From the IMG/VR virus record IMGVR_UViG_3300014886_000120: DNA of 64,000 nt. One strand, 5' to 3'. The DNA comes from a virus. Taxonomy: Duplodnaviria > Heunggongvirae > Uroviricota > Caudoviricetes. Below are positions 8,599 to 61,150 of the stretch, in pieces. Position 1 is the first letter of the stretch. Each line of letters starts with the position of its first letter. Position numbers and translations under genes: made by a program. The notes beneath the pieces are model-generated. The model was given only the letters and a program-made list of their open reading frames with translations. It ran no database searches and was not told the DNA's origin.

Positions 8599-8858
8599 AA
8601 TACCTCCATTAGTAGTATATCCGAGAGATATAGTTCAACACATTTCCCACATAGGGCAATATTCCTTCCCCTAAACCATATAATGACTACAGGAGAGACC
8701 ATCTCTTTCCCACATATGGAACAGCTAACATGTGAACTAAAGTAAATATTCAAGTCAAACGAGGGGCTTGAACTATAATAATAATTGGGGCCTTCCAATG
8801 TGGTAGCCCATAAGGTACCAGTCCAGTATGAAGGATACAAGGATGCAGGAAAGGTCAT
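8595..8858 (-). CDS. small zinc-finger protein (paralog of 8862-9119)
   Basis: CSICGK...LCGKC; ends MEVL with GGAGGT encoded in its terminal codons. Confidence 0.35.
   Translation of the reverse strand: MTFPASLYPSYWTGTLWATTLEGPNYYYSSSPSFDLNIYFSSHVSCSICGKEMVSPVVIIWFRGRNIALCGKCVELYLSDILLMEVL
8616..8632. promoter_or_regulatory. palindromic motif TATATCCGAGAGATATA (motif 1)
   Basis: Inverted repeat TATATC/GATATA with a 5-nt spacer, 18 nt upstream of the radA start. One of about 14 copies. Confidence 0.5.
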
Positions 8859-8861
8859 AAC

Positions 8862-9119
8862 CTAGAGCTCCTCTGCAATTATTATTTTGGCAAGATATTT
8901 CTGGCCGCACTTGTCACATAGCTCAAGCTTCTTCCCCTGATACAATATCTTGTAAGCCTTAGACTCCTTCACTCTCCTTCCACACACATGACACTTTATG
9001 AACTTAACCTCAATTCTTGGCCATATCGGAGCTATGGTTGAAGGAGATGTACCAGAGACCTGATAAGTGACAGAGCCAGTAGTAGTATTCAATTGCCATT
9101 GATGATGCAACCATCTCAA
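8862..9119 (-). CDS. small zinc-finger protein (paralog of 8595-8858)
   Basis: CHVCGRR...LCDKCG; 85 aa. Confidence 0.4.
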   Translation of the reverse strand: MRWLHHQWQLNTTTGSVTYQVSGTSPSTIAPIWPRIEVKFIKCHVCGRRVKESKAYKILYQGKKLELCDKCGQKYLAKIIIAEEL

Positions 9120-9355
9120 CTACTTTCACCCTCTATATAGCTCCTAATGAACTTGATGTGTTTGCACACCCTTGGTCTGGTTGTGTAATATGGACATGTA
9201 CACACCCATTTCCTGTCATCTTTCCACACATAATACAGCTTTCCCTTGGGTGATATTACCTTCCATACCCTGTAGCTTTCCTGCTTTATGATATATCCCT
9301 GCTCCAGCAAGCTGGGGCTAGACATCCCCTCTCTCCTTGAGCTTAGCCTCTTCAT
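9116..9355 (-). CDS. SWIM-type zinc-finger protein
   Basis: CTCPYYTTRPRVCKH matches the CxCxnCxH SWIM pattern. Confidence 0.45.
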   Translation of the reverse strand: MKRLSSRREGMSSPSLLEQGYIIKQESYRVWKVISPKGKLYYVWKDDRKWVCTCPYYTTRPRVCKHIKFIRSYIEGESS

Positions 9356-9587
9356 ATGGCCCCACTACGTGTCTGTAGAGCTCAAGCTTGCAGCACTCAA
9401 GTACTCCTATGGCCCTGTTATAGTTAAAGTATCCTGGAGTATAAACTTCCTTCAATATCCTTGTAAAGATATAATTAATGTGTCCATCTACTCTCTGATC
9501 ATGAGGCAAGCTGCTTATTATCCGTCTTATAGCAGACTCATATTTTAACCTTTCTTTTATGGTTATATAGGGCAATATTACACCTCC

Positions 9588-9800
9588 TCAAGCTTTCCTA
9601 CAGGACTCACACTTTCTCCTGTCATACATTCCTTCTCTACAGTGAGACTTACATTCATAATACATCTTGTTCCTCCATACTATACGGAATGAAGCATCAG
9701 TGGAAAGTAGCCTACATAGGAACAAGGGATGTTTCCTCCTTATCTCTCCAGTAGCCATGTAGTTCCATTCCCTAAGAGCTTCCCTTTCCTTTCTGTTCAT
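9588..9800 (-). CDS. small Cys/His-rich protein
   Basis: CKSHCREGMYDRRKCESC cluster, 70 aa. One of four small ORFs packed into 9318-10168. Confidence 0.3.
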   Translation of the reverse strand: MNRKEREALREWNYMATGEIRRKHPLFLCRLLSTDASFRIVWRNKMYYECKSHCREGMYDRRKCESCRKA

Positions 9801-10190
9801 ACCTAGGTCTCCAGTAAGTTATCTCTCTAATAAGGTCTGGAAGTATAATAGCTCTACACCTTGGACATACTATCCCACATAGTGGAAAGCTATATATTCC
9901 CTCACCTTTGTATCCACATCTTCCACAGCTTATCTCTATGTTAACCATCCTTTGCCCTCCTAAGCTTAAGATATAGCTTGAAGTCATTAATGTAATATTT
10001 CAGCTTTTCAATCAATGTAAGTCTCTTCTTTGCTATGGATGTCCTTACTGGAAACACCATTTCTCCTCTGGTCCATATTGGGATGAAGGACTGTTTCTTC
10101 TCTATGGTGTAATGTGTGAGGATGAACAGGACATATTCAGGATCATCCTCAAGCCTTTTCAGCTTCATATAGGCTTCACTCTTAGACGTT

Positions 10191-11210
10191 CTATAACATA
10201 GACAGTACCTTTCTCAGTCTAGACACAAAGCTTTCAATGTCTTGATTAGGTAGCAATGTGCAAGCTGCAAATCCATAGTGTCCACCACACAAGTATCCAA
10301 TGCTGGCTAGCTTGTTAGCCAGGTACTTAGCTTGTATCCCCCGTATGCTGACCTCCCTGTTGGTCTCATTTATAACCAGATAAGTTACATACCTGTCCGA
10401 TGACTGAAGCATGGTAGCTACCCTTGAAGCTATCCAGCTCTTAGACCTGAAACGTACTATAGCAAAGTGTCCTATCTTCTCTATCACAAGAGGGTTGCTG
10501 GAGTCATTGAATATCCTGTCTATCTCAGAGCTAATCTCATTCTGTGCCCTTATAGCTTTAGGATTGTTTATGACATCCCTCAAGCTCCTGGCACTCCTCA
10601 CTATCGAGTAAGCTCCCATAACATCCCCAGTCCTACAGAGGGCATTGACTGGACTAGATAGCTTAGAGAACAAGGGATAAGGGTATGACTTGATATTCTT
10701 GTATCTGTCCATGTAGATATTACCCTGCATGTCCCATAGTTCTTTAACGGTGTCCCATATCTCGTCTGGAATAATCTCAGGCTGTCCGTCTCCTACACAG
10801 CTCAACACAGCTAGCCATGTCTTCTCAGCCGGTATACGGTCTTTGAATAGCTTGTATATCATCAGTCCTGTTGGTACACTTCCAAGGACAAGCTTGTAGG
10901 TTATCTCTCCAATATGGTCATGATGATCTATTACTATCTTACCCTTCCATTTGTCCCTAAACAATGGAGCTCCAAGATCAAGTGCTATGTGTCCGTCCCT
11001 ATATCCCCCAAACACAGCTGGAGATCTGGGCCACTCCTTTGACTCTTCTATCTCAAATGCACAAGCTAATAGGGCACAAGCTCCTATACCGTCAGCATCA
11101 CTGTGGAAGTTAACTTGTAAAGGCTCAAGGGACTCCAGCTCTCTAACAAGCTGTTCTATGCTCTTGATGTTATAAAGTTCAAGCTCTCTCAAGACATTCC
11201 TCCCCATCAT
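10191..11210 (-). CDS. DHH-family phosphoesterase (RecJ/Cdc45/GAN-like)
   Basis: DHH motifs HSDADGIGA and IVIDHHDHIG; 339 aa. Confidence 0.65.
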   Translation of the reverse strand: MMGRNVLRELELYNIKSIEQLVRELESLEPLQVNFHSDADGIGACALLACAFEIEESKEWPRSPAVFGGYRDGHIALDLGAPLFRDKWKGKIVIDHHDHIGEITYKLVLGSVPTGLMIYKLFKDRIPAEKTWLAVLSCVGDGQPEIIPDEIWDTVKELWDMQGNIYMDRYKNIKSYPYPLFSKLSSPVNALCRTGDVMGAYSIVRSARSLRDVINNPKAIRAQNEISSEIDRIFNDSSNPLVIEKIGHFAIVRFRSKSWIASRVATMLQSSDRYVTYLVINETNREVSIRGIQAKYLANKLASIGYLCGGHYGFAACTLLPNQDIESFVSRLRKVLSML

Positions 11211-11522
11211 ATCAAGCTACTTCAGAATTTTGTTTGATGGTCTGGAAGCTAATATTTAAGGCTTGCTCTTTACTCTTGATGTTCCTCAGTCCTTGCCTGC
11301 TTCGTTCTTTTCTTCTTCAGGACTACCTTCTTGTTGTTAACATACAGTACCATCTTTACACCTCCTCTTAGATGTACTTTCTTACAAGTAACATCTCTAT
11401 AGGTATCTTACCCTCTATGCTTACAGACACTACCTTTTCACTCTCAAGGGCCAGAGCTAGATTCCTTAGAAGCTCTGGGGTTACTTCCCATTTTACCACT
11501 AAGGTAACATTTTCTGTGTCCT

Positions 11523-12145: not shown

Positions 12146-12561
12146 ACCTGAATCTCTCCACTAGACTTGTCAACATTCTTAGACATCTTTTCCCAGCATT
12201 CTGGACATACCAGGAACTTGTCAATCCTGTAGACATTGCCATCAGCTGCAAAGTCAAGGTCTGGCTTAAGAAGTACAGTTTCACATGAGCATGACTTCTC
12301 AACACGGTACTTCATACCTAAGGGGTCATAGTATATCCTGACTGTCTGTTCATGGCACAATGGACATTCAACCAAGTGCCCATTATAGTATATATGCTTC
12401 ACTGAATAAAACTCTACTTTGCCCATTGAAGCTCTGGTAGCTATTGGCTTGCCACATATCCTGCATACCTCTTTTCCTATCTTCATCATACTATCACCTC
12501 TTCCTAAGAATTTAGAACTTTCCTTCCTAAGCTTATCTTCTCCCTTATGAGTTCTTCCCAC
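12142..12561 (-). CDS. multi-zinc-ribbon protein
   Basis: CRICGK, CPLCHE, CSCET, CPEC motifs; 139 aa. Confidence 0.4.
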   Translation of the reverse strand: MGRTHKGEDKLRKESSKFLGRGDSMMKIGKEVCRICGKPIATRASMGKVEFYSVKHIYYNGHLVECPLCHEQTVRIYYDPLGMKYRVEKSCSCETVLLKPDLDFAADGNVYRIDKFLVCPECWEKMSKNVDKSSGEIQV

Positions 12562-13124
12562 TCTCCATAGTTTGTTTCATCCAGACTAAGGTAAGTATAT
12601 CCGAGAGATATAAAATACCGTATCTTCTTTCTATCTGACTTAGCTCTGTTCCATCTTGAATGCCATATCGATGGGTTAACCTCTATTAATAGCTTAACCG
12701 GTTCTTCTATGACAAAGTCTGGATAATAAATATGCTTACCATTATGGAATGGCCTGTTATGTTCATACTTTATGTTCAAGCTATCCAGTATCTCCCTAGC
12801 TTTTCTTTCTGGTGGAGTGTAATAGTTAGGATCTCTATTAGGCTTGCTAGCTACTATAGAACACAGCTTCCTGAACTTGAATGAACGTAGGAAGCTTACT
12901 CTCCATTCCCCATGCTTTTCACATTCACACACAGCCCATGTCCCTTCATGGTACTTTGGAAGCTTGTAGTTTCCCTCACAATGTGGACATGGATACTTTG
13001 CTGGTACAAGCACTCCGTTATGTAAGCTAAACAGCCCATGCTTGTTGCACATGTATATATCATCCTTACTCTTCAATGGAAGATAACCATCAAATTCTTT
13101 GTTGCATACTGGACATTTCAGCAT
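12504..13124 (-). CDS. zinc-finger protein with Vsr/DUF559-like (PD-(D/E)xK-fold) endonuclease domain
   Basis: N-terminal CPVC...CPHC...CEC. C-terminal YYPDFVIEEPVKLLIEVNPSIWH resembles the Vsr-like endonuclease core. Confidence 0.4.
   Translation of the reverse strand: MLKCPVCNKEFDGYLPLKSKDDIYMCNKHGLFSLHNGVLVPAKYPCPHCEGNYKLPKYHEGTWAVCECEKHGEWRVSFLRSFKFRKLCSIVASKPNRDPNYYTPPERKAREILDSLNIKYEHNRPFHNGKHIYYPDFVIEEPVKLLIEVNPSIWHSRWNRAKSDRKKIRYFISLGYTYLSLDETNYGEWEELIREKISLGRKVLNS
12596..12612. promoter_or_regulatory. motif 1 copy
   Basis: TATATCCGAGAGATATA, about 35 nt upstream of the 12561 start. Confidence 0.45.
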
Positions 13125-19454: not shown

Positions 19455-19471
19455 TATATCCGAGAGATATA
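19455..19471. promoter_or_regulatory. motif 1 copy
   Basis: TATATCCGAGAGATATA in the intergenic region upstream of the E1-like gene. Confidence 0.45.
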
Positions 19472-21257: not shown

Positions 21258-21436
21258 AGCTCACCAGCAACCATACATTCATAGCTGCAATAAGTCACTA
21301 TCACATACCCTATAAGCTGTCCATGATGATCCAGGATAGGCTCAGAATTTACATTTATACCCTTAAGACGTTCAACCCTCTTGCCACAATAATGGCATAG
21401 GAAAATAGACTTGCTTTCTTCAGGCATAAACCTCAC
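21254..21436 (-). CDS. small zinc-finger protein
   Basis: CHYCGK...CSYEC; terminal GGT GAG CTA TGA embeds the SD and start of the next gene. Confidence 0.4.
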   Translation of the reverse strand: MRFMPEESKSIFLCHYCGKRVERLKGINVNSEPILDHHGQLIGYVIVTYCSYECMVAGEL

Positions 21437-21448
21437 TTTGGTAAATGT

Positions 21449-21733
21449 TCAGGCATCCCTAAATTTCCTAGCTAGACTCTGTCCAGAAGAAAAGCTAGGC
21501 CAGAACAATATCCCTCCAATATAGCTACCGATGTACTTAAGAGGGTTATACTCCAATGGAACACCTTTAAGCAAACCTATGAATGATGCAGATACCATAA
21601 GCACTAGAAGGGTCAGCCCAAGGATAATAGCCAGTCTCCTTTTCAGCTCGTATATGAATCCCCCAATTACACCTATGCACATCCATTCCATTGTCTGGAC
21701 AAGATTATAAAAAAACAGAGTCCATAGCTCCAC
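21449..21733 (-). CDS. small membrane protein
   Basis: Multiple hydrophobic helices. Confidence 0.35.
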   Translation of the reverse strand: MELWTLFFYNLVQTMEWMCIGVIGGFIYELKRRLAIILGLTLLVLMVSASFIGLLKGVPLEYNPLKYIGSYIGGILFWPSFSSGQSLARKFRDA

Positions 21734-22174: not shown

Positions 22175-22213
22175 GTTTACACCTGCTTATACGTAATTAA
22201 ACACTGCCCATGT

Positions 22214-22471
22214 CTACTTGGGCTTACTACATAGCTTGCTATTGGGGAATTTACCCTTGTCGTACACACCTAAGCTTGGTATCCATCCACAATTGATACA
22301 CCTAGGTCTTCCTGGACATCCCAGCAAAGACGCACTAATCAAATCCACAGGTATGGATACCAAGTACCCTCCACATTTTGGACATGTCCCTAGAATGGCA
22401 GCTTGGGTAACATAGCCTCTTCCGTCAATAAATACAGGGCCAATACCAGGTATGAAAGACATTTGTACCAA
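22214..22471 (-). CDS. small zinc-finger protein
   Basis: CPKCGG...CINCG. Confidence 0.3.
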   Translation of the reverse strand: MVQMSFIPGIGPVFIDGRGYVTQAAILGTCPKCGGYLVSIPVDLISASLLGCPGRPRCINCGWIPSLGVYDKGKFPNSKLCSKPK

Positions 22472-22615
22472 GACAGATATACACCTCCTATGACAGGAAT
22501 TTTACTCCCCTCTTACATTTTGGACAGTACCAGCCTCTAAGTGCATCCTTATGGAACAAAGGCTTAAGGCTTGTTTTGCACCTTGGACATTTCCTTGACA
22601 TATGCTCCTCAGTCC

Positions 22616-22878: not shown

Positions 22879-24333
22879 TTATTTTGAAGATATCCAGTAC
22901 ATAGGTTTCTTAGTATACTCTGGCCTGGTAGGTGGGACAGTACTCATTATCTCAGCTACAACCCTGGATGGAGAGCTCTCCCCTATCAATGCAACTATCT
23001 GGTCTACAGAATACTGGTCTACCTTCTCTATTGTCACTCTCTCATAGTTTATACCAGCTCTCTCCAGTCCTCTCCTGAAGTACGAATCTCTGCCAGTATT
23101 GATTCCCAGAATTATAACCTTTGGCTTGAAGGTAAGTTTGGAGTATTCATCAACAAACCTTGGAGGATGGTTCTCAGCTTCGTCGGTTATGAGAACCAGA
23201 GTGTCACATGTATCATTGAGCATCCTCATGAGCTGCAGTCCAGCTCCCAGTGGTGTCCATCCTCCAGTCCTTAGCAGAGAGAATGCTTCCCTCCACCCGG
23301 TAGGTGAATAGTCTACTGGAACTACCTTGACTGGACTCTCTCCAACTGCATATACTGAGGGAGGCTCCTTACATGCCAGAGTCAATGCAGTAGCTAGCAT
23401 TCTTCCAGCTTCGATGGCTGGTTGCATAGAGCCAGAGACATCAATGTGTATGGACACTCTAACGTCTAGCTTGCTGGTGTTCCTGGACTTTAGTACTATG
23501 GTGTTCTCAAGAAGCTTAAACAGCTCGTATGGCACCTTAGCTGGATCAAGATAGGATAGAATGTTGAGTATCCTTGATGCACTTACCCGTTTATCACTAA
23601 GAGCAGCTTCTATCTTACCCTTTATGATGTCCATGTTAGGCTTAATAGCTCTGAACCTACCAAGCATGTTTAAGGACTGTAAAAGCTCATTTGGAGTCAT
23701 TCCCTTTATTAGAGCTCTCAGTATCTCTGGAGTCCTTACCTTGATAGTTGTCAGAGCTATGTAGGATGGAACCGGAAGCTTACTGAGTATCTCAGCTACC
23801 CTATTGGGGTCTTCCTCCTCTCTAAGCTCTCTGAAAGCTTTCCTAACGGTTCCAGTCCTCTTGAACAGCTCTTCACCTATAAGCTTGAAGTTAGGATTAG
23901 ATGATCTGTCTGTAGGAATGTGTAGGGCTCTCACAATATATAGGAGTTCCTTCTTAGAACGTAGAATGTAGCTAACAAGCCTCCTATAGCTAAGTTCAGC
24001 TAAGTAATGTTTCACAGCTGATCTAAGACTTCTGGTCTTCCTTGCATGATAGACAACTTGATAGACTAGCCTAAGTGGTAGCTTCTGGAGTAGAGCCCAT
24101 CCAATATCTCTCAGCTGGCTCTCATCAGCTTCCATGAGTGTCTTTACGAAAGCTACCTTGTGATCTCTGACAGTTCCATTCTCTATGTACCAGCTGGCAA
24201 ATCTGGAATAGAATAGAGGATTAACATCCTTGACCTGTCTATGAACCCCAAATATCTCATCCAGATTGCCATGTGGACAGTTCATGATAGCAGAGAACAT
24301 CTGGAGGTTAGCTGATGCTTGTTCGTTACTCAT
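22879..24333 (-). CDS. vWA-domain protein with helical N-terminal region, possibly Ro60/TROVE-like
   Basis: C-terminal MIDAS motif HIDVSGSM...GGWTPLGAG...LITDEAEN. About 290-aa alpha-helical N-terminal region, 484 aa total. This matches the TROVE+vWA layout. The TROVE call is an inference. Confidence 0.55.
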   Translation of the reverse strand: MSNEQASANLQMFSAIMNCPHGNLDEIFGVHRQVKDVNPLFYSRFASWYIENGTVRDHKVAFVKTLMEADESQLRDIGWALLQKLPLRLVYQVVYHARKTRSLRSAVKHYLAELSYRRLVSYILRSKKELLYIVRALHIPTDRSSNPNFKLIGEELFKRTGTVRKAFRELREEEDPNRVAEILSKLPVPSYIALTTIKVRTPEILRALIKGMTPNELLQSLNMLGRFRAIKPNMDIIKGKIEAALSDKRVSASRILNILSYLDPAKVPYELFKLLENTIVLKSRNTSKLDVRVSIHIDVSGSMQPAIEAGRMLATALTLACKEPPSVYAVGESPVKVVPVDYSPTGWREAFSLLRTGGWTPLGAGLQLMRMLNDTCDTLVLITDEAENHPPRFVDEYSKLTFKPKVIILGINTGRDSYFRRGLERAGINYERVTIEKVDQYSVDQIVALIGESSPSRVVAEIMSTVPPTRPEYTKKPMYWISSK

Positions 24334-24346: not shown

Positions 24347-24363
24347 TATATCTCTCAGATATA
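24347..24363. promoter_or_regulatory. motif 1 copy (inverted spacer)
   Basis: TATATCTCTCAGATATA, 14 nt upstream of the vWA/TROVE-like gene start. Confidence 0.45.
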
Positions 24364-24599
24364 GTCTATCCATAAACAGCTCTTGGCCTAACAAGGATAG
24401 CCTCTTCTGTCTTGTCTATACAGTACTCATTGCTGTCAAGCTCTATGTTGGCTACTTCACTAACGTAGCTAAAAATCTCCTCGTCACTAGCTTCCTTAAG
24501 GGAGCTATCCACTTTAAGAGAGGTACTCTCTCCTCTACTAACTATCCTAAGCTCTACTTCCGGCAACTTATCACTCTCCTTACATTTTATATTTTGTCT

Positions 24600-24940
24600 A
24601 TCCTTTCCATGGACAGTCTATAAAACATGGGGGATGACCAGAATGGAATTGGGCCCGCCTTGACTTGTGTGGAAGTGCCAGGAGCTATCCCTGCACCCGA
24701 ACTGCACAGTTTGTAAGCTCCTAGCTTGCCCACACCTTTAGTCTAAGCCGGGTAGTCAAGTCAGGTAAGATGCGGGACTTACGACCTGGAACGTAGACTA
24801 AGACAGGCGGGATTTAAAGTGTGAAAGTGGTGGGAGCTAATTTTGGAACCCTGATAATTGTTCAGGTTTGTAAGCTCCCACCAAGTCACACCTTGGTTTC
24901 TGACCTTTTGGGTAAGGATGGGATATTTAAGCATTTCGGA
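24600..24940. ncRNA. candidate structured ncRNA(s), strand undetermined
   Basis: ORF-free and clearly GC-richer than its surroundings. Tandem hairpins at 24680-24722 and 24831-24880 have 7-8 bp stems (AGGAGCT/AGCTCCT versus GGGAGCT/AGCTCCC) with compensatory base changes. A further 9-bp stem pairs 24737-24745 with 24794-24802. No canonical tRNA T-loop. Confidence 0.35.
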
Positions 24941-24943
24941 GCT

Positions 24944-25274: not shown

Positions 25275-25291
25275 TATATCCCTCAGATATA
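25275..25291. promoter_or_regulatory. motif 1 variant
   Basis: TATATCCCTCAGATATA. Confidence 0.4.
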
Positions 25292-26547: not shown

Positions 26548-26733
26548 TTCAACACTCTTCCTTCTCTTTCATGTATTGATAATAGCCAAAGTATCTACCA
26601 CAATTTTTACAATAGCAGTCCCATAACCAGGGACTAGCTGGTTCAAACATGATAGTGTTCTTACTTCCACATCTAGGACATGAAGGGCCTCTAGGCTTAG
26701 TACACATCACCTATCCCTCAACTTAACATTGAC

Positions 26734-32815: not shown

Positions 32816-33619
32816 CTATTCCTTCTTAAACACCAAGATATACTCATGAGCCTTACTGGTATATTTCATCCTGTCACACTTGGATATCTGGGTCCATACA
32901 AAGGGGCTTCTTAATACTGAAATAACTATGTCCCATGGAGTGAAGCTGTTCTTTGCAGCAAGCTCTATCGTGTCCTTATGGAGAATCCTAAAGCCTTCCT
33001 TCCTAAAGTCAGCTACTACAAATATACAGAACTTACCAGGCTTAAGGACTCTGTAACAGTTGGATAATGCTTCATCTATCCTAACCAGATATTCGTCATA
33101 AGTCTTACAGTCTGAGAGCTGACCTTCTACACTTTCATATTTTTCAAGGTTCCAGTACGGAGGACAAGTAAATACTAAATCAACAGAGCTATTAGCTGAA
33201 TGTTCAAGCTTACATCCATCTGCATTGTACAATATGTAGTCTCCCGTAGATGAAGTTAATAGAGTACTTCTACTCTTGACCTTATCTAGGAAGGAACTAG
33301 CAATACTGAACATTCTTGGTGAGATGTCATATCCAATATAGGTTCTCTCAAGCTCTATAGCTACAGCTCCTCTAATACCCCATCCCATGAATGGATCAAG
33401 GATAATATCTCTTTTCTTACTCCAGTATTTAATCACAAAGGATGATAGTCCATAAGAGAACTTTGAATACTTTAGCCCTGGAAGGTATTTACTACTTGAG
33501 CTTCTCTTACACATGTCTATGGTCAAATAGCTATCTATCTCTCTCCATCTTTTAGGTACATTCTCAAAAGTCATTACAGACTTAGGTAGGAAGCCGTACT
33601 TCTCTTTTACAGTTGGCAA
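32816..33619 (-). CDS. SAM-dependent DNA methyltransferase (CPPY)
   Basis: Motif I DPFMGWGIRG and motif IV FTCPPYWN; 267 aa. Confidence 0.6.
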   Translation of the reverse strand: MPTVKEKYGFLPKSVMTFENVPKRWREIDSYLTIDMCKRSSSSKYLPGLKYSKFSYGLSSFVIKYWSKKRDIILDPFMGWGIRGAVAIELERTYIGYDISPRMFSIASSFLDKVKSRSTLLTSSTGDYILYNADGCKLEHSANSSVDLVFTCPPYWNLEKYESVEGQLSDCKTYDEYLVRIDEALSNCYRVLKPGKFCIFVVADFRKEGFRILHKDTIELAAKNSFTPWDIVISVLRSPFVWTQISKCDRMKYTSKAHEYILVFKKE

Positions 33620-34704: not shown

Positions 34705-35478
34705 TCAGGCAGCTCTTAGCTCAACCTTCTTGTTGCTTATTAGCTTAGCTCCACACTGTGGACACATGACAATGTACTCTCTTGGAGAAGATCTGGCTTT
34801 CTTCCTTGGCTTGACTATACCTTGCAGCTTCATGTCCTGTTTCTTGATAGCTCTCAGTACTTTCTCTTCTGGAGCTCCATCAAGAACGTTCTGAAGAGCC
34901 TGGTAAGCTCGGTATACCGTAAGAGTTCCCCGATCAAGCTCAGCTACTATGTTTGGAATCTTGTCTTCATTCTCATATATTGTCTTCAGCTGGTATAGCT
35001 TGCCAGACGATATTCCCAGCTCATGGGCAACCTTGTCTCTAAGCTTTGGGAATTCGGTCAAAGTTTGTCCTAATTTCCCTTTCTTGGGTTTCCCCACCTT
35101 GTAAAAGGGCTGGAACTTCTTCTCTAAGACCTTTGCTTCCATGAACAGTTCTCTGGGTGTCTTCTGTCTGTATTTGTTAAGCATTACTATGGCAAGCTCT
35201 TCGTCTTCGTAGTATCTGATGATTACTGGTACCTTCCTTATCCCAAACCTCAATGCCCTGTTGTAACGTCTCCTACCATCCAATATCTGGAGCTCTTTGT
35301 TTACAACAAGGGGAGTACGGATGCCATTGTCAGCTATGTCCTTATCTAGCATTTCATCGATATGATCTGTATAGATTTTCTTGTTGAACGGATGTACTTC
35401 CAGCCTGTCCGTATCCACCAGATATATAGTGTCCATAGGCTTGAGCTCTCTTAGGCCAATACCTTTACCTAGACTCAA
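34705..35478 (-). CDS. ParB N-terminal-domain (ParB/Srx-like) protein with C-terminal zinc ribbon
   Basis: ILDGRRRYNRALRFGIRKVPV matches the ParB arginine box; C-terminal CPQCG. Confidence 0.5.
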   Translation of the reverse strand: MSLGKGIGLRELKPMDTIYLVDTDRLEVHPFNKKIYTDHIDEMLDKDIADNGIRTPLVVNKELQILDGRRRYNRALRFGIRKVPVIIRYYEDEELAIVMLNKYRQKTPRELFMEAKVLEKKFQPFYKVGKPKKGKLGQTLTEFPKLRDKVAHELGISSGKLYQLKTIYENEDKIPNIVAELDRGTLTVYRAYQALQNVLDGAPEEKVLRAIKKQDMKLQGIVKPRKKARSSPREYIVMCPQCGAKLISNKKVELRAA

Positions 35479-36746: not shown

Positions 36747-36763
36747 GTATATCCCTCGGATAT
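36747..36763. promoter_or_regulatory. motif 1 variant
   Basis: TATATCCCTCGGATATA, immediately downstream of the P-loop gene stop. Confidence 0.4.
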
Positions 36764-36766
36764 AGT

Positions 36767-38181: not shown

Positions 38182-38217
38182 ATTATGAACCCCTATATCT
38201 GATGGATATAAATAAGC

Positions 38218-41915: not shown

Positions 41916-42134
41916 TTACTTTTTCAGTTCTTCAATTATCTGGACTACAGCTATCATTCCAATAAAGACTATAACACAGACTATAACTGAGGAAATAAGA
42001 GCTATAAGTCTCTCCCAGAAATTTGTTGGAGCTAAGAGCATATAGTTACCTATACTAGCCAGAACTGGAATACCAAAGTATGCTAGTATAAGGTATATCC
42101 GAGAGATATATTTCTTAAACCTCTCTTTATCCAT
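41916..42134 (-). CDS. small membrane protein
   Basis: Two TM helices. The palindromic motif lies within its first codons, so the true start may be an internal Met. Confidence 0.3.
   Translation of the reverse strand: MDKERFKKYISRIYLILAYFGIPVLASIGNYMLLAPTNFWERLIALISSVIVCVIVFIGMIAVVQIIEELKK
42093..42109. promoter_or_regulatory. motif 1 copy
   Basis: TATATCCGAGAGATATA. Confidence 0.4.
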
Positions 42135-42135: not shown

Positions 42136-42573
42136 CTAACCCTCCATCCTACTTCTAAGTATAGCTTTCAGCTTCTTGATGTCTCCCTTCTCCAGTCTTC
42201 TAGCTAACATACCATTTACTCCTGACATTCCTCTCTCTCTTGTAAAGTTCAACATCTTGTCAGCTAACCACTCTAGGAACTTGTCCTTGTTAGAGTAGTA
42301 GAACCATTTCTTTCTGGTACCAAACACTCTGGACTGTCCATGTTTCCTAGCAGAGTTAAACGAAGCCTTGAATCTTTGAGCTTTCCCTTCCAGAACAAGA
42401 GCAGTAAGGGCATTGTGTACCACTCCTATCTTCAGGCCAGTACCCTCTATAATATCAGACATGCAAGCTCCACCACTCTCTTCCAGAAACTTCAAGACTG
42501 CAAGCTTCTTTTCTTCTGAAACACTCCTCTTCTTCATCTCATATCTCCCCATAACAACCTTTAAGGAACACAC
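42136..42573 (-). CDS. winged-helix transcription regulator candidate
   Basis: VLKFLEESGGACMSDIIEGTGLKIGVVHNALTALVLEGKA resembles a wHTH. Confidence 0.4.
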   Translation of the reverse strand: MCSLKVVMGRYEMKKRSVSEEKKLAVLKFLEESGGACMSDIIEGTGLKIGVVHNALTALVLEGKAQRFKASFNSARKHGQSRVFGTRKKWFYYSNKDKFLEWLADKMLNFTRERGMSGVNGMLARRLEKGDIKKLKAILRSRMEG

Positions 42574-47419: not shown

Positions 47420-47638
47420 TCATGGTCTATCATCCATCTCCTGGAGCTCCCTTTGGATTATCCTCAGTTTCCTATCGTAATAATGTGACAATGGTGGATT
47501 GAGCTTCTTGTGAGCTTTAATCCACTTGACTATTGACAATAGAATGAACCTTTTAAGGGTATACCCTCTAGAGTTCTTCAGTCCATGGATTGCATTGTAA
47601 GCTTCCTCAGACACTTTGAACGATATAGTTCTCTTCAA
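47420..47638 (-). CDS. ribbon-helix-helix (CopG/Arc-like) regulator candidate
   Basis: N-terminal KRTISFKVSEEAYNAI beta-strand/helix pattern; the palindromic motif is 20 nt upstream. Confidence 0.4.
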   Translation of the reverse strand: MKRTISFKVSEEAYNAIHGLKNSRGYTLKRFILLSIVKWIKAHKKLNPPLSHYYDRKLRIIQRELQEMDDRP

Positions 47639-47657: not shown

Positions 47658-47674
47658 TACTTATATCTATATCC
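47658..47674. promoter_or_regulatory. motif 1 copy
   Basis: TATATCCGAGAGATATA, 20 nt upstream of the RHH gene start. Confidence 0.45.
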
Positions 47675-47685
47675 GAGAGATATAC

Positions 47686-47941: not shown

Positions 47942-48286
47942 TTACAGTCTCCTAGCTATATCCCTCAGATAGTTGTTTTTAAACTCCTCCCATTCCTCTC
48001 TAATGTAACCGATAAGGAGCATGCCAGGATAAACCAGCAAGCTCATTGTGGTGTACCTGAACAACATTGGCAACCATATAACACTAGTATCCTCTATAAT
48101 TTTGTGTTCCATATCCGGTATTATCCACACCATAGCCCCAAATATTCCGAAAGCTAGATGACATCCAAAAAGTACAGCTGGCAATATCACCCTGATGATC
48201 ATAGCTATCTCCAGGAGCTTTCCCTTTACTATCTCTTTCCATTTACCAATCAGGAACTTGACAAATAAAAGGAGTACTCTCGTCAT
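47942..48286 (-). CDS. membrane protein
   Basis: Three TM helices. Confidence 0.35.
   Translation of the reverse strand: MTRVLLLFVKFLIGKWKEIVKGKLLEIAMIIRVILPAVLFGCHLAFGIFGAMVWIIPDMEHKIIEDTSVIWLPMLFRYTTMSLLVYPGMLLIGYIREEWEEFKNNYLRDIARRL
47957..47972. promoter_or_regulatory. motif 1 degenerate copy
   Basis: TATATCCCTCAGATAG, about 32 nt upstream of the 47925 start. Confidence 0.3.
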
Positions 48287-51123: not shown

Positions 51124-51882
51124 TTAATACAAGTACACAGTTGAACCTTTAGTCTTGGTCTTAAACCCACTCCTATAACCATAGTCATACCTATAATCGT
51201 AATAGTAGAAGCCATAGTCACCAATCTCCCTTATGCCTCTGGATGTTATCTGATAGAGACAGTTGGTCTCTGGTTTAAAGGTCAACACATTAGAGAACTT
51301 GCCCAGTCTCTTACCAAATATTCTGCATCCATCCTTAAGAGCTGACTCTGTACTAGCAAACACTAGAGCCTTATGTGGAATATACCCTACTGGAGATGGA
51401 TTGTGGTTAGACCATAGGAATATAGACCTTGGATTATCCCTCTTACATAGTGCTATAGCAGCTGTCCCCCTTATTTCATCCAAAGCTTTAGTCAACCCGT
51501 ATCTCTCTATGTAGGAGAGGATAATCTCTGAGTCTACTTGACCTATATACTCATACTTGGATAGTCTCTGGCTATATATGATACCATTATGCACCAGAAT
51601 CCAACGCTTCGAGTACAAGGGATGGTTGTTATGTGGGTTCTTAGGAGTACCTTGGGTAGCTTGCCTAGTGTGTAGCAACGTTATATAACCAAATCGTTTA
51701 GGGAAGATACTGAGCTTGACGAATATAGAGGCTCTCACTGGAGCTTTAACTATGGTGCCGTTAGTGTATATCCCAGTTGCATCTTTCCCTCGATACTCTA
51801 TCTCTAGCAACAGTTGTCTGGCAAGTCTTCTAGCTTCTCTCTGGGTTAATCCCAGGTTAAGGAAACCAGCTATCCCACACAT
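51124..51882 (-). CDS. class-II (Ntn) glutamine amidotransferase domain protein
   Basis: N-terminal MCGIAG nucleophile-cysteine motif typical of AsnB/PurF/GlmS-type GATase II; 252 aa stand-alone. Confidence 0.65.
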   Translation of the reverse strand: MCGIAGFLNLGLTQREARRLARQLLLEIEYRGKDATGIYTNGTIVKAPVRASIFVKLSIFPKRFGYITLLHTRQATQGTPKNPHNNHPLYSKRWILVHNGIIYSQRLSKYEYIGQVDSEIILSYIERYGLTKALDEIRGTAAIALCKRDNPRSIFLWSNHNPSPVGYIPHKALVFASTESALKDGCRIFGKRLGKFSNVLTFKPETNCLYQITSRGIREIGDYGFYYYDYRYDYGYRSGFKTKTKGSTVYLY

Positions 51883-51903
51883 ATCAAGATTACCTCCTCT
51901 TCT

Positions 51904-53520
51904 CTAGGTAAAACCCTCTATTTTCCTAGGTAACACTCCTGGCTTTCTCCTAACCTTCTTAAACATCTTGTCCTTATCTACGATCTTGATGCCATGTCTA
52001 TCTAGCTCTTCTATTATAGCTGCCTTTAGAGATAGAAGTATCCTATCAAACTCTTCACGACTAATAAGACCCTTCCTAAAGCTGTATGGTAAGCCAAAGC
52101 AATTACTTGGTCTAGAAATATCAGTAGCTTGAGAGTACCCGTCTAGCCTAAAGCCATACAGCTGCTTCCCTCTCTCTCTCCTTAGCCCAAACAGTACTAT
52201 ATCGTAAGGATGATTAAGGTACATTTCTAGCTCTTTAAGAACTATCCTGGTTATTTCTAAAGACCACTCATCTGAGAATCCAATAGACAGCTTGTAACCT
52301 TCACTAGTCGGGATACCCCAGTTACCCAAAATGTTATAATAGTGATTTCGTAGCTTGCCAGTAGCAAATGCTCTAAACAGCTTGTACTCTCTTCTTGACA
52401 ACCCACATATACGTTTGTAGTCTTCGTACTTCAATCTCCTATTGTACACTATCCGTCTATGGTTGACATAGTAATTAGCTACACCTCTGGCTATCTTCAA
52501 GACTATCCTAGCTATCTCTGGGAAGCATAGCCATGCAGATGGAGGTGTACGATACTCGAATCCCCATGGCTTAGGTTCAATAGCTGATAATCTGTTGTAT
52601 CCATGTCTAGCATGACCAGACTCACTCCTTAAAGGCTTACCTATAAAGTCATCCAACATCTTTATTAGGTTACCACTTGGGAATATACCAAAATGTATGT
52701 GTCCACCAAGAGGATCATGGTCTCCTTTGACTCCAATAATATGATATACCCTGCTAGCCTTCATCAACAAATTGTGAATGTTACGTACTAGCTGTACATG
52801 ACTCACTGAAGGTTCTGGTCTTATCTCTAGCTGGCTACCAGCTCCATCACACCCAACATCTTCATGATACCCAGGAGTGTAATCCTCAGCTCTAACTATC
52901 CTCCCACCAATGAACACTTCAAATTCTGGATCACATCCTATGGTAACCTTGACAGCCCTCTTTCTCTTCTTGACCTTAGATAATGGAACCAGACCAAAAT
53001 GCTCTAGTGAAGATAGCATAGAGCTCAAAATGTCATGCTGAGTAGCTGTATAGTCATGAGTAAAGTCAGACAAAACCAGTACCTTTAGCTTTGGACAATA
53101 CCCACCACAGACAAGTTCGTTCAATTTAAGCTTTACACAGGCTCTAGATATGAACTCTATCTGAGAAGATATTAGATCGTCCCAGCATGAACCAAGCTCG
53201 TTAGACGGAGCTGTGAAGGGGATTAACACTTCTTGCTTCATATTACAAGAGACACAGTCAAGCTGACGTAGCTCTCTTGAACATCCAGAGAATATTAAAC
53301 ATTTAGACTCGTCTGATGACGGTACTTTAGGGTCATGGTATATTATCTCTGAATGTGCTGCTACACAGCTGAAATACTTTGATAGGAGGTCAATGTAGTA
53401 GCTGCTATGTTCCATAGTCTTCAGGACGCCAGGTACTACACTTGTCCCACCAGATAGAACTATCTTGTCTGAGTTCTTACTCTCCTCTCTCCTAGGCATT
53501 TTAATCTCCTCTTCTAGCAT
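51904..53520 (-). CDS. large hypothetical protein, candidate carboxylate-amine ligase (GS-like amidoligase) or PP-loop synthetase partner of the GATase
   Basis: GCDPEFEVFIGG resembles the ExE metal-binding strand of the glutamine-synthetase fold (GPEPEFF). N-terminal VLSGGTSVV is a degenerate PP-loop-like SGG motif. 22-nt gap to the GATase gene. Confidence 0.35.
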   Translation of the reverse strand: MLEEEIKMPRREESKNSDKIVLSGGTSVVPGVLKTMEHSSYYIDLLSKYFSCVAAHSEIIYHDPKVPSSDESKCLIFSGCSRELRQLDCVSCNMKQEVLIPFTAPSNELGSCWDDLISSQIEFISRACVKLKLNELVCGGYCPKLKVLVLSDFTHDYTATQHDILSSMLSSLEHFGLVPLSKVKKRKRAVKVTIGCDPEFEVFIGGRIVRAEDYTPGYHEDVGCDGAGSQLEIRPEPSVSHVQLVRNIHNLLMKASRVYHIIGVKGDHDPLGGHIHFGIFPSGNLIKMLDDFIGKPLRSESGHARHGYNRLSAIEPKPWGFEYRTPPSAWLCFPEIARIVLKIARGVANYYVNHRRIVYNRRLKYEDYKRICGLSRREYKLFRAFATGKLRNHYYNILGNWGIPTSEGYKLSIGFSDEWSLEITRIVLKELEMYLNHPYDIVLFGLRRERGKQLYGFRLDGYSQATDISRPSNCFGLPYSFRKGLISREEFDRILLSLKAAIIEELDRHGIKIVDKDKMFKKVRRKPGVLPRKIEGFT

Positions 53521-55104: not shown

Positions 55105-55121
55105 TATATCTGAGAGATATA
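55105..55121. promoter_or_regulatory. motif 1 copy
   Basis: TATATCTGAGAGATATA. Confidence 0.4.
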
Positions 55122-57630: not shown

Positions 57631-57647
57631 TATATCTCTCCCATATA
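57631..57647. promoter_or_regulatory. motif 1 degenerate copy
   Basis: TATATCTCTCCCATATA, at the start of 57378-57629. Confidence 0.3.
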
Positions 57648-59088: not shown

Positions 59089-59111
59089 AAAAAAGGTGGG
59101 AGGGGTGGGTT
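59089..59111 (-). terminator. C-rich + T6 terminator-like element (minus-strand sense CCCACCCCTCCCACCTTTTTT)
   Basis: Immediately after the stop of 59110-59340. Confidence 0.4.
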
Positions 59112-59340
59112 AGCTTGTGTGTGCCTTCAGCTCAACAAGTCTGTTCAGTGCATTTTCCAGAGCCTCAGATAGGGTTCTGAACCCTATGGCAACAGCCTTT
59201 ATCTCATATATGCAGACTCCAAAGGATGGCTCTATGTCTGTTCCAGTGTTGGCTATTTCGATGAGATACTCTCCATCGTCGAGTCTCATCTTTGTGTTGG
59301 ATTTCTCTAGAGTCTTTAATGTCTCCATGTTCCCATACAC
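59110..59340 (-). CDS. small hypothetical protein (cassette gene)
   Basis: 76 aa; motif-2 promoter upstream and terminator-like element at its stop. Confidence 0.4.
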   Translation of the reverse strand: MYGNMETLKTLEKSNTKMRLDDGEYLIEIANTGTDIEPSFGVCIYEIKAVAIGFRTLSEALENALNRLVELKAHTS

Positions 59341-59384
59341 CCTTAGGTAAGGGTAAAAGCTCTATGTCCTAATAAAGGTTAGCA

Positions 59385-59407
59385 TTTTTTAACAGCCTTA
59401 GTAAGCG
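59385..59407 (-). promoter_or_regulatory. motif 2: TTTTTTAACAGCCTTAGTAAGCG
   Basis: One of five about 23-nt copies containing the palindrome CTTA(S)TAAG and an A/T-rich block; upstream of 59110-59340. Confidence 0.45.
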
Positions 59408-59410
59408 TCA

Positions 59411-59427
59411 TAAAAAAGGGAGGGTGG
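59411..59427 (-). terminator. C-rich + T6 terminator-like element (CCACCCTCCCTTTTTT on the minus strand)
   Basis: 10 nt after the stop of 59437-59817. Confidence 0.35.
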
Positions 59428-59436
59428 AAGAGTAGC

Positions 59437-59817
59437 TTAAGCTATAATGCTCTGAGAGCTAGTTTGTCTCCGGCTACTCTCCTTGACTATCTGCTTCATA
59501 ACTTCAGCTACCATCTGAGCCTTCTTAACGTTCTCTTCTACCTTGCTGATTATCATGGAGGTCAGTAGGATACACATTGACTCTATAGCTTCCATGTATG
59601 TCTCTGGAGTTCTCTCCTTACCCATCAGCTTACAGTATGAGCTAGCCCATTCTACTGACATCTTAAGGATGTCTGGCAATATGTTGGTTTCCATGTCCTT
59701 AAGTATCCTTGTCAGAGTCATGGCATTGTGTTGATCTTCAGTTATGCTTCCCAGAACCTCTATTACCTTCTCCCTTAGAGCTTTAGCTGCCTCTCCGTCC
59801 AGCCTTCTCTCTTCCAT
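59437..59817 (-). CDS. small hypothetical protein (cassette gene)
   Basis: 126 aa; both motif families upstream. Confidence 0.4.
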   Translation of the reverse strand: MEERRLDGEAAKALREKVIEVLGSITEDQHNAMTLTRILKDMETNILPDILKMSVEWASSYCKLMGKERTPETYMEAIESMCILLTSMIISKVEENVKKAQMVAEVMKQIVKESSRRQTSSQSIIA

Positions 59818-59849
59818 CGTTACAGCCTTCTATAAGCAGTGGTATCTTC

Positions 59850-59866
59850 TATATCCCTCGGATATA
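59850..59866. promoter_or_regulatory. motif 1 variant
   Basis: TATATCCCTCGGATATA, 33 nt upstream of the 59817 start. Confidence 0.4.
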
Positions 59867-59880
59867 TTTAAGATTTAGCA

Positions 59881-59903
59881 TTTTTTAACAGCCTTACTAA
59901 GGG
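59881..59903 (-). promoter_or_regulatory. motif 2 copy
   Basis: TTTTTTAACAGCCTTACTAAGGG, upstream of 59437-59817. Confidence 0.45.
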
Positions 59904-59913
59904 AGCTAAAGAA

Positions 59914-60174
59914 CTACTCTAAGGAGGGGTAAAGGTAAGCTGGTATCTTATTATTCTCTAGCATCATGGCTAGCCACCATAGATCTATGATGTCAATCTC
60001 AGACGATACTTTGAACCTTATAGTTATCCTGTCTAGATGTTTGTCATAGCTGACATGAAACCTCTCAAGCTGCTGCTCGTTCATAATAGCTCTAGCTAAA
60101 TCCTCAACTCTTCTTATCATGCTATCAACATCCATGCTACCACCTCGAAGCCATGGTATTGAGCTATACAGCAT
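59914..60174 (-). CDS. small hypothetical protein (cassette gene)
   Basis: 86 aa; motif 2 ends 13 nt before the ATG. Confidence 0.4.
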   Translation of the reverse strand: MLYSSIPWLRGGSMDVDSMIRRVEDLARAIMNEQQLERFHVSYDKHLDRITIRFKVSSEIDIIDLWWLAMMLENNKIPAYLYPSLE

Positions 60175-60187
60175 TTAAGACTTGAGG

Positions 60188-60210
60188 TTTTTTAACAGCC
60201 TTACTAAGCC
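60188..60210 (-). promoter_or_regulatory. motif 2 copy
   Basis: TTTTTTAACAGCCTTACTAAGCC, ending 13 nt before the ATG of 59914-60174. Confidence 0.45.
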
Positions 60211-60225
60211 TGTTAAAGATTGGAG

Positions 60226-60639
60226 CTACTCCTCTTCCACATACACATGGAAGAACCCTAAGTACCTTGGCAGCTCTATGTAATCCTCATCATCTACGTC
60301 ATCTACTTCGATACCATGGAAAAACTTAGCTTCTGGGTTGTACTTACCAAAGCTATCCTTGAAGGCTTCTATGAATGTCTGGGTACTAATGTTTCTTATC
60401 TCATCCTCATGTTTCCTAAATAGCTCTTCATTGACTGGGCTAAAGTCACTATTCTCTATCTCCTCAGCTATGGCATCCACAATCTCTTTAACTGTCTCCT
60501 TTCCCGTTATGCCAATGGAAAAGCTTAGGCAAGCTGCTAGGTTGTCTGGAGCAAAAGCATGACCATGTCCCCTGAAATAGTCTACGTACCCAGCATAGTC
60601 TTCTGAGAACTCTACCACTATCTTATGCTTATCATTCAT
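60226..60639 (-). CDS. small acidic hypothetical protein (cassette gene)
   Basis: 137 aa. Confidence 0.4.
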   Translation of the reverse strand: MNDKHKIVVEFSEDYAGYVDYFRGHGHAFAPDNLAACLSFSIGITGKETVKEIVDAIAEEIENSDFSPVNEELFRKHEDEIRNISTQTFIEAFKDSFGKYNPEAKFFHGIEVDDVDDEDYIELPRYLGFFHVYVEEE

Positions 60640-60700
60640 GCCTAACCACTTCCCTTAGTGTTCTATTGTTATCCTACCATTCAGTATTTAAGACTTAGGG

Positions 60701-60723
60701 TTTTTTAACGGGCTTAGTAAGGG
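60701..60723 (-). promoter_or_regulatory. motif 2 copy
   Basis: TTTTTTAACGGGCTTAGTAAGGG, upstream of 60226-60639. Confidence 0.45.
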
Positions 60724-60733
60724 TGTTAAACAA

Positions 60734-60964
60734 CTATATCTGAGAGATATAGTTCTGTCCTTCAGCTAGCTCCACTATGAAGGTCTCAACGGCATACACT
60801 AGCTCTCTGGGATATCTCTCCATCATCTCGGTAAGCTCTTTATGGGTTACCCTACGGTATATCATTGAGTCATGGTTCTCCATAAGCCTACGTAGCTTAC
60901 TCTTTATCATGCCTACAACTATGTAGTTCATCCCTTTCCCTACCTTGGATACTTCCTTGTACAT
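60734..60964 (-). CDS. small hypothetical protein (cassette gene)
   Basis: 76 aa. Confidence 0.35.
   Translation of the reverse strand: MYKEVSKVGKGMNYIVVGMIKSKLRRLMENHDSMIYRRVTHKELTEMMERYPRELVYAVETFIVELAEGQNYISQI
60735..60751. promoter_or_regulatory. motif 1 copy
   Basis: TATATCTGAGAGATATA. Confidence 0.4.
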
Positions 60965-61133
60965 GCTTCTATAAACCTCTCCCTATCAAACCTAGGATTG
61001 TCAAGCTCGAAATATCTAGCTAAACGTAGCATGATCTCCTCTTTACTGGATGAAACCCTGATTATCCCAGCTATGTCCCGATAGTATTTCCTGGTCAACA
61101 CATTCCATCACCCCTTAAGAGACCGATGTTAAG

Positions 61134-61150
61134 TATATCTGAGGGATATA
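61134..61150. promoter_or_regulatory. motif 1 variant
   Basis: TATATCTGAGGGATATA, in the divergent promoter region. Confidence 0.4.

Follow-up and report, generated by a model that had tools for sequence, protein, structure and literature searches.

A dispersed 23-bp palindrome as a candidate operator for a virus-encoded dimeric regulator in an uncultured archaeal tailed virus

Background

What might be the role of a short palindrome that recurs, almost unchanged, along much of a viral genome? The question is raised by a stretch of 64,000 nucleotides from the IMG/VR virus record IMGVR_UViG_3300014886_000120 (here called the window, meaning the whole of that stretch), in which an earlier note, made from the letters of the sequence, had pointed to about 14 copies of the palindrome TATATC-N5-GATATA (TATATCNNNNNGATATA), most of them just upstream of gene starts. 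To our knowledge, very little has been learned about how archaeal tailed viruses regulate their genes, a few haloviruses apart. Here we describe the anatomy of this element, its placement relative to genes and promoters, and its replacement by a different palindrome in two related viruses, and we argue that its copies probably, though by no means certainly, form a dispersed operator through which a dimeric DNA-binding protein of the virus would act on transcription.

The window encodes a family B DNA polymerase (PolB), RadA, an ATP-dependent DNA ligase and the large terminase; Alba and a ThiF/E1-like protein are also encoded, and every gene of the window except one is carried on the minus strand. 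It is 99.95-99.98% identical to a 109.7-kb Logan contig (SRR14699971_10637), whose flanks we joined to the window to obtain an extended sequence of 82 kb, out of a genome of approximately 110-128 kb, with the gene calls of the contig mapped to window coordinates. Variants of the same virus this close to identity are uninformative on the conservation of the motif. The contig flanks add genes for an ERCC4 nuclease, an RNase H, NrdD (an anaerobic ribonucleotide reductase) and the activase of the latter. Among cultured viruses, tailed viruses of haloarchaea come nearest, reaching only 23-29% protein identity in the best PolB, RadA and TerL matches, and this distance together with the gene set indicates that the window is part of an uncultured archaeal tailed virus. 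The presence of the NrdD and NrdG genes suggests that its host is probably anaerobic. The window contains no tRNA and no match to Rfam.

Distribution and anatomy of the palindrome

A search of the window recovered 14 exact matches to TATATC-N5-GATATA, starting at 3387, 8616, 12596, 19455, 24347, 25275, 36748, 38194, 42094, 47668, 55105, 59850, 60735 and 61134, as compared with a mean of 0.02 and a maximum of 1 in dinucleotide-preserving shuffles. This bears out the copy number of the earlier note and most of its coordinates, with the corrections that 36747, 42093 and 47658 are really 36748, 42094 and 47668, that two of its copies are imperfect (57631, one mismatch, and 47957, two mismatches), and that it had missed the exact copies at 3387, inside the PolB gene, and at 38194. 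The flanks contribute three more copies, at window-equivalent positions -5177, -3253 and 73461, for a total of 19 in 82 kb. Scanning the extended sequence with a position weight matrix built from the copies gave these scores of 16-33, with a clear gap to the background; two borderline candidates, at 21507 and 30582, score inside the range of shuffled sequences. No other palindrome family was found in the 82-kb sequence. An exact-motif scan of IMG/VR returned only four matches, one each, which is the level of chance, so that neither this virus nor a motif-sharing relative is represented in the collection scanned; a degenerate-motif scan of 185,579 reference genomes gave one match per stretch among the matches listed, with no host or provirus signal.

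Alignment of the copies in gene orientation and as half-sites revealed that the conserved unit is a 23-bp dyad, A-W-C-TATATC-Y-CTC-R-GATATA-G-W-T (as duplex sequence, AACTATATCTCTCAGATATAGTT). Its arms are near-invariant, with 36-38 of the 38 half-sites agreeing at each position, and their centres, at positions 3.5 and 14.5, are 11 bp or about one helical turn apart. The degeneracy is itself symmetric (Y at position 7, R at position 11), as are the three outer positions on each side (A-W-C and G-W-T). The central triplet is non-palindromic, being CTC or GAG in 18 of the 19 copies. All exact copies have Y-CTC-R or its reverse complement as the spacer except the copy at 38194 (TGATG); the spacers reported previously (CGAGA, TGAGA, CCTCA, CCTCG and their reverse complements) are recovered here and only TGATG has to be added to them. 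Relative to the genes the triplet is oriented 9 times as CTC and 9 times as GAG, as would be expected of a site read in duplex DNA; an RNA signal or a directional promoter element should not behave in this way.

Outside the 23 bp the flanks of the copies are about 27% identical, which is the random level. This suggests that a short site has been kept independently at each place, as opposed to being copied inside a larger repeat, and we accordingly rejected the possibility that it is a piece of a larger duplicated unit. Isolated arms are common, and are located in coding sequence as codon use predicts; only 7 of 62 and 6 of 41 lone hexamers are intergenic. As lone arms show no enrichment between genes, the functional unit appears to be the pair of arms. 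Folded as RNA, the commonest variant reaches -3.6 kcal/mol, which is not better than its shuffles (z = -0.25), and the other variants, two copies with 10-bp arms excepted, reach -3.5 to -6.6 kcal/mol. Together, the features of dyad, orientation, arms and folding suggest that a symmetric dimer recognizes the site as duplex DNA, and oppose both an RNA signal and a TATA box formed by a single arm.

The placement of the copies is equally distinctive. Thirteen of the 19 are wholly intergenic, against 2.2 expected by random placement (a count of 13 was reached in 0 of 20,000 trials). A further four overlap the first or last codons of an open reading frame (ORF), placing 17 of the 19 at gene boundaries. 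In agreement with the earlier claim that copies lie upstream of gene starts, 9 of 12 intergenic copies are within 40 nt of the next start (p 0.0015); moreover, 7 of 12 are at 1-9 nt past a stop codon, a number that was found within 10 nt in 0 of 20,000 trials. Distances from copy to start cluster at 12-13 nt and at 22-36 nt, and most copies occupy gaps of 24-58 nt within what appear to be long co-directional transcription units. They are absent from the junctions at which a promoter comes after an oligo-T terminator (59.4, 59.1, 58.5, 43.1 and 37.6 kb), and equally from the canonical-looking promoters GAAATGCTTAAATAT at approximately 35.5 and 24.9 kb and from similar ones elsewhere. The coding density is 86.5%. 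Gaps without gene calls often hold small CxxC...CxxC zinc-ribbon ORFs (e.g. 8595-8858, 21258-21448, 22175-22615 and 26548-26733), and the real intergenic space is consequently less than 13.5%.

The genes singled out in the earlier note all have a copy upstream: that at 8616..8632 is 23 nt before the radA start, with a GGAGGT Shine-Dalgarno sequence starting 9 nt after the copy; that at 19455..19471 is intergenic, with the ThiF/E1-like gene 77 nt downstream; that at 24347..24363 is 2 nt past a stop codon, and a 484-aa gene starts 13 nt after it; and that at 47668..47684 is 1 nt past a stop codon and 29 nt before the gene for a putative ribbon-helix-helix (RHH) protein. The copy at 8616 may lie in the 3' end of a small zinc-ribbon ORF. 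Other copies between genes include 25275..25291 (6 nt past a stop and 1 nt before a 109-aa gene, or 17 nt from its alternative ATG), 38194..38210 (exact arms around the odd centre CATCA, the reverse complement of TGATG; 7 nt past a stop and 12 nt before a 195-aa gene) and 55105..55121 (10-bp arms, AACTATATCT...AGATATAGTT; 9 nt past a stop and 32 nt before a 55-aa gene), while 36748..36764 opens a 146-nt gap, 2 nt past a stop codon. The one-mismatch copy at 57631..57647 is 1 nt before an 83-aa gene, or 13 nt from the alternative ATG of the latter. The copy at 42094..42110 is 25 nt past the stop of a gene for a MarR-like winged-helix protein and in the called 5' end of a 72-aa membrane-protein ORF; the degenerate copy at 47957..47973, with both of its mismatches in one arm, falls within the final 30 nt of a 114-aa ORF, the next gene following 31 nt later; and that at 12596..12612 is contained in the final ~100 nt of a 206-aa ORF, with a 115-aa zinc-ribbon gene downstream of it. 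The copy at 3387..3403, deep in the PolB gene, encodes Y-L-R-D-I. Near window position 12492, around the junction of the 206-aa and 115-aa ORFs, a 2-nt indel separates the window from SRR14699971_10637; it could be a strain difference or an assembly error touching these two gene calls.

Register with early promoters and replacement in related viruses

The remaining three copies of the window are associated with an array of five promoter-like elements, termed P elements (59369..61183, minus strand; 5' ends at 61183, 60721, 60208, 59901 and 59405), with the structure CTTAsTAAG-sYY-GTTAAAAAA-N8-CTTAAATA. Each of these precedes a small gene, and the array is situated just downstream of the only divergent gene. 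The exact copy at 61134..61150 lies in the early promoter element P1, where it runs from the 5th base of the TATA-like GATTTATA, and the exact copy at 59850..59866 lies in the early element P4, running from the 7th base of the CTTAAATA box; each is followed 32 nt later by a coding sequence, a 53-aa ORF for P1 and a 126-aa gene for P4. The palindrome thereby starts 4 nt (P1) and 2 nt (P4) before the end of the TATA 8-mer. In established archaeal geometry, as measured in the halovirus HF2, the TATA box is centred near -26 (PMC8707807), and by this standard the palindrome occupies roughly -28 to -10, its end falling about 7-11 nt short of the expected start. P2, P3 and P5 are paralogous promoters without the palindrome; an exact copy with arms of 10 bp, at 60735..60751, shares bases with the stop codon of a 76-aa ORF and precedes P2 by 13 nt. 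Across variants of the P element, CTTAsTAAG is followed by GTTAAAAAA or GTTGCAWAA and then by CTTAAATA or CTTATAAA, and this 9-bp palindrome CTTAsTAAG might itself serve as another conserved operator.

Related viruses are represented by two IMG/VR contigs of about 108-110 kb, whose terminases show 56% identity and whose gene order is syntenic. Neither has the window palindrome; both carry a different one, AGATAGTWACTATCT (as duplex sequence, AGATAGTAACTATCT), at comparable places, with at least 13 copies in 51 kb of one relative and more than 10 in about 65 kb of the other. Their early regions contain 9-10 tandem P elements (arrays on L005 and L006, at approximately 12.5-16.5 kb), the upstream half of which is conserved with the window, and in many of these elements a full or degenerate version of their own palindrome (TAGTWACTAT) follows the TATA box at a distance of 0-14 nt. 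The relatives also resemble the window in having a further copy just upstream of a P element. The position of the palindrome has thus been kept while its sequence has been replaced, which suggests a lineage-specific, virus-encoded factor. A metagenome scan with the terminase alignment returned only contigs of 1.4-2 kb.

The copies within ORFs of the relatives show a further peculiarity: GATAGTAACTATC is always read there as Asp-Ser-Asn-Tyr-Leu, in at least four unrelated proteins (L005, L022, L048, L057 and L085). The use of a single frame is a sign of selection at the level of DNA that has been accommodated in one reading frame.

A probable operator, its possible binders and the rival explanations

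The earlier note had left the choice between a dimeric regulator and an alternative TBP or TFB as the factor that recognizes the palindromes. The latter finds no counterpart in the 82-kb gene tables, which contain no gene with a TBP or TFIIB Pfam match. The former agrees with the 23-bp dyad, the 11-bp spacing of the arms, the lack of a preferred orientation and the placement at boundaries, as well as with the TATA overlap in two early promoters and the occurrence of a different palindrome at similar places in the relatives. From these features we infer that a protein binds the sites, and likewise which protein this may be and what the sign of its effect would be. In the model that we favor, one viral protein, acting as a symmetric dimer or a dimer of dimers, would bind the palindromes as double-stranded DNA sites at the gene boundaries of a co-directional gene train. 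At P1 and P4, a protein on the site, which takes in the 3' end of the TATA box and the greater part of the stretch up to the expected start, would exclude TBP, TFB or RNA polymerase in the classical mode of archaeal repression; at sites lying between a stop and the next start it would gate weak internal promoters or block the elongating polymerase.

Several proteins encoded by the virus might play this role, and our tentative first choice, if short of a probable one, is a ParB/Spo0J/Noc-like protein of 296 aa (4336..5226, minus strand), in which a GSRRYRAA motif is followed by a helix-turn-helix (HTH). Its residues 33-178 align to Spo0J (1vz0) across both the motif and the HTH; its alignments with Spo0J, ParB and Noc structures likewise extend over both domains (E 2e-7 to 1e-5), and Pfam (ParB_N 1.6e-10, together with HTH_3) and ParB PHROG matches concur in identifying it, by sequence comparison, as a true member of the ParB family. 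No protein with a ParA-type deviant Walker A motif (KGGxxK[ST]) is encoded within 82 kb, and the ParA-binding motif [LFI]G[KR]G[LFI], as defined in PMC12704722, was not seen by eye in the N-terminus of the 296-aa protein; it is therefore likely to be closer to Noc or KorB than to a partition ParB. An orthologue with 44% identity occupies the same place beside PolB in one of the two relatives (relative B), where the recognition helix is changed (SPRTISEW vs SPSTIREW), so that, in this single comparison, a different palindrome is paired with a different ParB recognition helix.

A MarR-like winged-helix protein of 133 aa (42136..42537, minus strand), whose gene ends 25 nt before a site, is a possible binder as well, with somewhat less in its favor; homologues of it outside this virus were not found. 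The putative RHH protein (72 aa; 47420..47638, minus strand), whose gene starts 29 nt after a site, is a doubtful one. Its assignment to the RHH fold is a guess from a strand-helix-GxT-helix sequence pattern, its AlphaFold monomer (pLDDT 78) is a strand-less coil-helix-helix-helix, and its only homologues are proteins with 66% and 39% identity on contigs shorter than 1 kb with no palindrome nearby. We would give about as little credence to some other protein being the binder. The sole gene on the opposite strand (61389..62141, plus), which converges on the terminase gene, codes for a further candidate, an HTH protein of 250 aa with an N-terminal transposase-type HTH (weak HTH_28/23/38 matches) and a C-terminal region that is conserved. 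The relatives have this protein at 40% identity, and its helix 3 differs between them.

A number of observations sit uneasily with an operator of this kind. The CTC centre is asymmetric and yet invariant, which a symmetric dimer does not account for. Only 2 of the 19 copies overlap a recognizable promoter, two lie deep within genes (PolB and NrdD), and the 24-58-nt gaps that hold most copies contain no other TATA-like sequence. At radA and at a 909-aa gene the Shine-Dalgarno sequence begins 7-9 nt past the palindrome, leaving scant room for a transcription start. About one third of the copies in the relatives are inside ORFs, and one lies between the convergent terminase and HTH genes, indicating that the role of the element may not be purely promoter-linked. 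The evidence for each candidate binder is also circumstantial, and the putative RHH protein has no family match and no significant PDB fold match by structure search.

These difficulties bear on the alternatives too. One of these is that the palindromes constitute a class of core promoter, in which the arm C-TATATC-Y would be the TATA box for the host TBP and TFB and transcription would fire ~12-14 nt past the palindrome, yielding leaderless or short-leader mRNAs and, by symmetry, potentially in both directions. The arms are indeed AT-rich and TATA-like, many copies are in short gaps without another TATA-like sequence, and in four genes (at 38194 and 24347, and with alternative ATGs at 57631 and 25275) an ATG is found 12-17 nt past the palindrome, where a leaderless start would be expected if palindrome positions 0-7 were the TATA box; furthermore, intergenic repeats of the halovirus HF2 proved to be promoters (PMC8707807). 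However, the suggestion of the earlier note that each half is a TATA box does not fit the recognizable promoters of this genome, which read GAAATG-CTTAAATA-T or CTTATAAA with GAAA-like bases upstream and to which the arm CTATATCY is a poor match, nor the lack of intergenic enrichment of isolated arms. A promoter would need neither the second, inverted arm nor the conserved CTC centre; it would be expected to have an asymmetric flank resembling the TFB-recognition element (BRE), whereas the flanks of the arms are symmetric except where stop codons overlap them; and it should occur at the oligo-T terminator-then-promoter junctions, where no sites are seen. In the relatives, the counterpart GATAGTWACTATC is not TATA-like and is downstream of the TATA box. 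We consider such a promoter unlikely, and a weaker explanation than an operator. Similarly unlikely, in our estimate, though to be taken seriously, is that the sites are loading sites for the viral ParB, akin to parS, NBS or OB, which would serve DNA organization (episome segregation, compaction or recruitment of factors) and not promoter control, with the intergenic placement reflecting mainly the difficulty of fitting a 23-bp palindrome into coding sequence. ParB-family proteins typically bind short perfect palindromes present in several dispersed copies, as with parS, the NBS of Noc and the OB of KorB. The 296-aa protein has the ParB N-terminal domain, a GxxRxxA-type motif and an HTH, its orthologue has been kept beside PolB in relative B with an altered recognition helix, and the copies that lie inside ORFs or between convergent genes, whether in the window or in the relatives, agree with a role independent of position. 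Against this stand the lack of a ParA-type Walker A protein and of a discernible ParA-binding motif, the lack of any link between ParB and this particular sequence, and the way in which the intergenic sites hug stops and starts and fill the interval from TATA box to start in two promoters, which exceeds what avoidance of coding sequence would produce. Should ParB silence transcription in the manner of KorB (PMC11790492), this explanation would merge with that of an operator.

Far less probable are two explanations that dispense with a regulator of transcription altogether. Were the palindrome an RNA hairpin in polycistronic transcripts, acting as a signal for processing, stability, termination or translational control, one would expect copies between the cistrons of co-directional genes, as observed; every copy can also form a stem of 6-10 bp with a loop of 3-5 nt, and on the sense strand positions 7 and 11 are pairable, G-U included, in 15 of 17 copies. 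Nevertheless, the counts at positions 7 and 11 are as under independent variation, meaning no covariation; the loop is CUC in one half of the copies and GAG in the other, the stems are weak (mostly -3.5 to -6.6 kcal/mol), and no copy in the window is followed by a U-run, while the symmetric conservation extends to the A-W-C/G-W-T flanks, a property of the duplex. This explanation we regard as very improbable, and a terminator was rejected because no window copy has a T-run after it and the stems are weak. Hardly more credible is that non-coding gaps have been colonized by a selfish palindromic element of the REP/MITE type, or by a sequence on which a homing enzyme, a nicking enzyme or a recombinase acts. 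It would explain the many near-identical intergenic copies in both orientations and the asymmetric centre, which could be conserved by descent, and the HTH protein on the opposite strand at 61389-62141 does have transposase-type HTH Pfam matches. The unit, however, measures just 23 bp, and neither common flanks nor target duplications nor a longer element accompany it; the 82-kb gene tables contain no RAYT/Y1 transposase match, and the copies at functional promoter positions and their positional equivalents in the relatives argue for selection on function. Tyrosine-recombinase core sites need a centre longer than 3 nt, and the centre here is too short for them. On general knowledge of site geometry and copy distribution we also rejected a recombinase core site, replication-origin boxes and a restriction or methylation target.

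Parallels in known systems

If the palindromes are indeed operators, several known systems offer points of comparison. KorB, encoded by the IncP plasmid RK2, is a CTP clamp of the ParB family and a global repressor; the plasmid has about a dozen copies of OB over a replicon of ~60 kb, at promoters and far from them. The palindrome described here resembles OB, the core of which is TTTAGCSGCTAAA (oligo in PMC11790492), in being a short perfect palindrome with an odd centre, in its dispersed multi-copy sites, some at promoters and some not, and in the ParB-family HTH protein encoded in the same element. It differs in belonging to an archaeal virus with BRE/TATA promoters, in the length of the site (17-23 bp) and its 3-nt asymmetric centre, and in that no ParA/IncC or KorA-like partner was identified here, the ParB homologue being a candidate binder. 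The stoperators of mycobacteriophage L5 and its relatives among phages are tens of short repressor sites, found mostly in short intergenic gaps, that are thought to block transcription genome-wide. They too are a single short site scattered through a phage genome in the gaps of co-directional gene trains; yet they are asymmetric, 13-14 bp long and in a single orientation, unlike the palindrome with its 9:9 distribution, and no immunity repressor or integrase module was identified in the virus studied here. Operators of archaeal repressors can overlie the TATA box or follow it closely; in Thermococcales, for instance, the TrmB-family operator TATCAC-N5-GTGATA represses by excluding TBP/TFB or RNA polymerase. 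This 6-N5-6 inverted repeat lies between TATA box and start, as at P1 and P4, but such operators define host regulons with characterized host factors, whereas the present sites are viral and mostly away from recognizable promoters. The intergenic repeats of HF2 and other Haloferacalesvirus members likewise occur at strategic positions in an archaeal tailed virus; those of class I/II contain BRE/TATA and a conserved start block and have proven promoter activity (PMC8707807). It is the P elements that closely resemble these repeats (class I), both being of the directional, promoter-bearing type. The HF2 repeats are 29-58 bp long, directional and conserved across the genus, whereas the palindrome is 23 bp long, free of orientation and replaced in the nearest relatives.

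Neighboring features

Two other regions of the window deserve mention. Directly after one of the canonical-looking promoters (GAAATGCTTAAATAT), and upstream of a 66-aa gene and the 484-aa gene, is an ORF-free and relatively GC-rich stretch of 377 nt (24567-24943, minus strand), which folds at -128 kcal/mol (z = -6.4 vs shuffles) into two similar long hairpins, each with GGAGCUUACAAAC. It has no Rfam match, and we regard it as a candidate structured non-coding RNA. The 484-aa protein (22879-24333, minus strand) had previously been labeled TROVE-like, a label for which no Pfam, PHROG or PDB sequence match was obtained; the TROVE/Ro60 idea would gain interest if combined with the neighboring candidate RNA.

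A set of genes at 51124-53520, 34705-35478 and 32816-33619 codes for a phiEco32-like COOH-NH2 ligase, a glutamine amidotransferase, an N6/N4 methyltransferase and a second protein with the ParB N-terminal domain, this one without an HTH. The combination is suggestive of DNA base hypermodification, and the HTH-less ParB activators of phage thymine dioxygenases (PMC13229309) provide a comparison for the second ParB-N protein.

Conclusions

Devices of this kind are well known from stoperators, KorB operators and the HF2 repeats, and the palindromes described here would be a new instance in a poorly studied group of viruses. A regulon of about 19 sites is defined from sequence alone, with a natural swap of specificity in sister viruses and few candidate binders; the clean set of sites and the swap make the proposal directly testable. 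By analogy, the ParB homologue, working without a ParA, might be a nucleotide-switched clamp that silences or times transcription genome-wide from the palindromes as its loading sites, a conjecture that we put forward with considerable doubt. If true, it would amount to a global regulon in the style of KorB that governs archaeal BRE/TATA promoters and in which the site and the recognition helix have diverged together in sister viruses. Control of transcription by a ParB clamp would extend to archaeal viruses if the ParB homologue is the binder; if it is not, the motif would still mark the architecture of transcription units in an uncultured lineage of viruses of about 110-128 kb.

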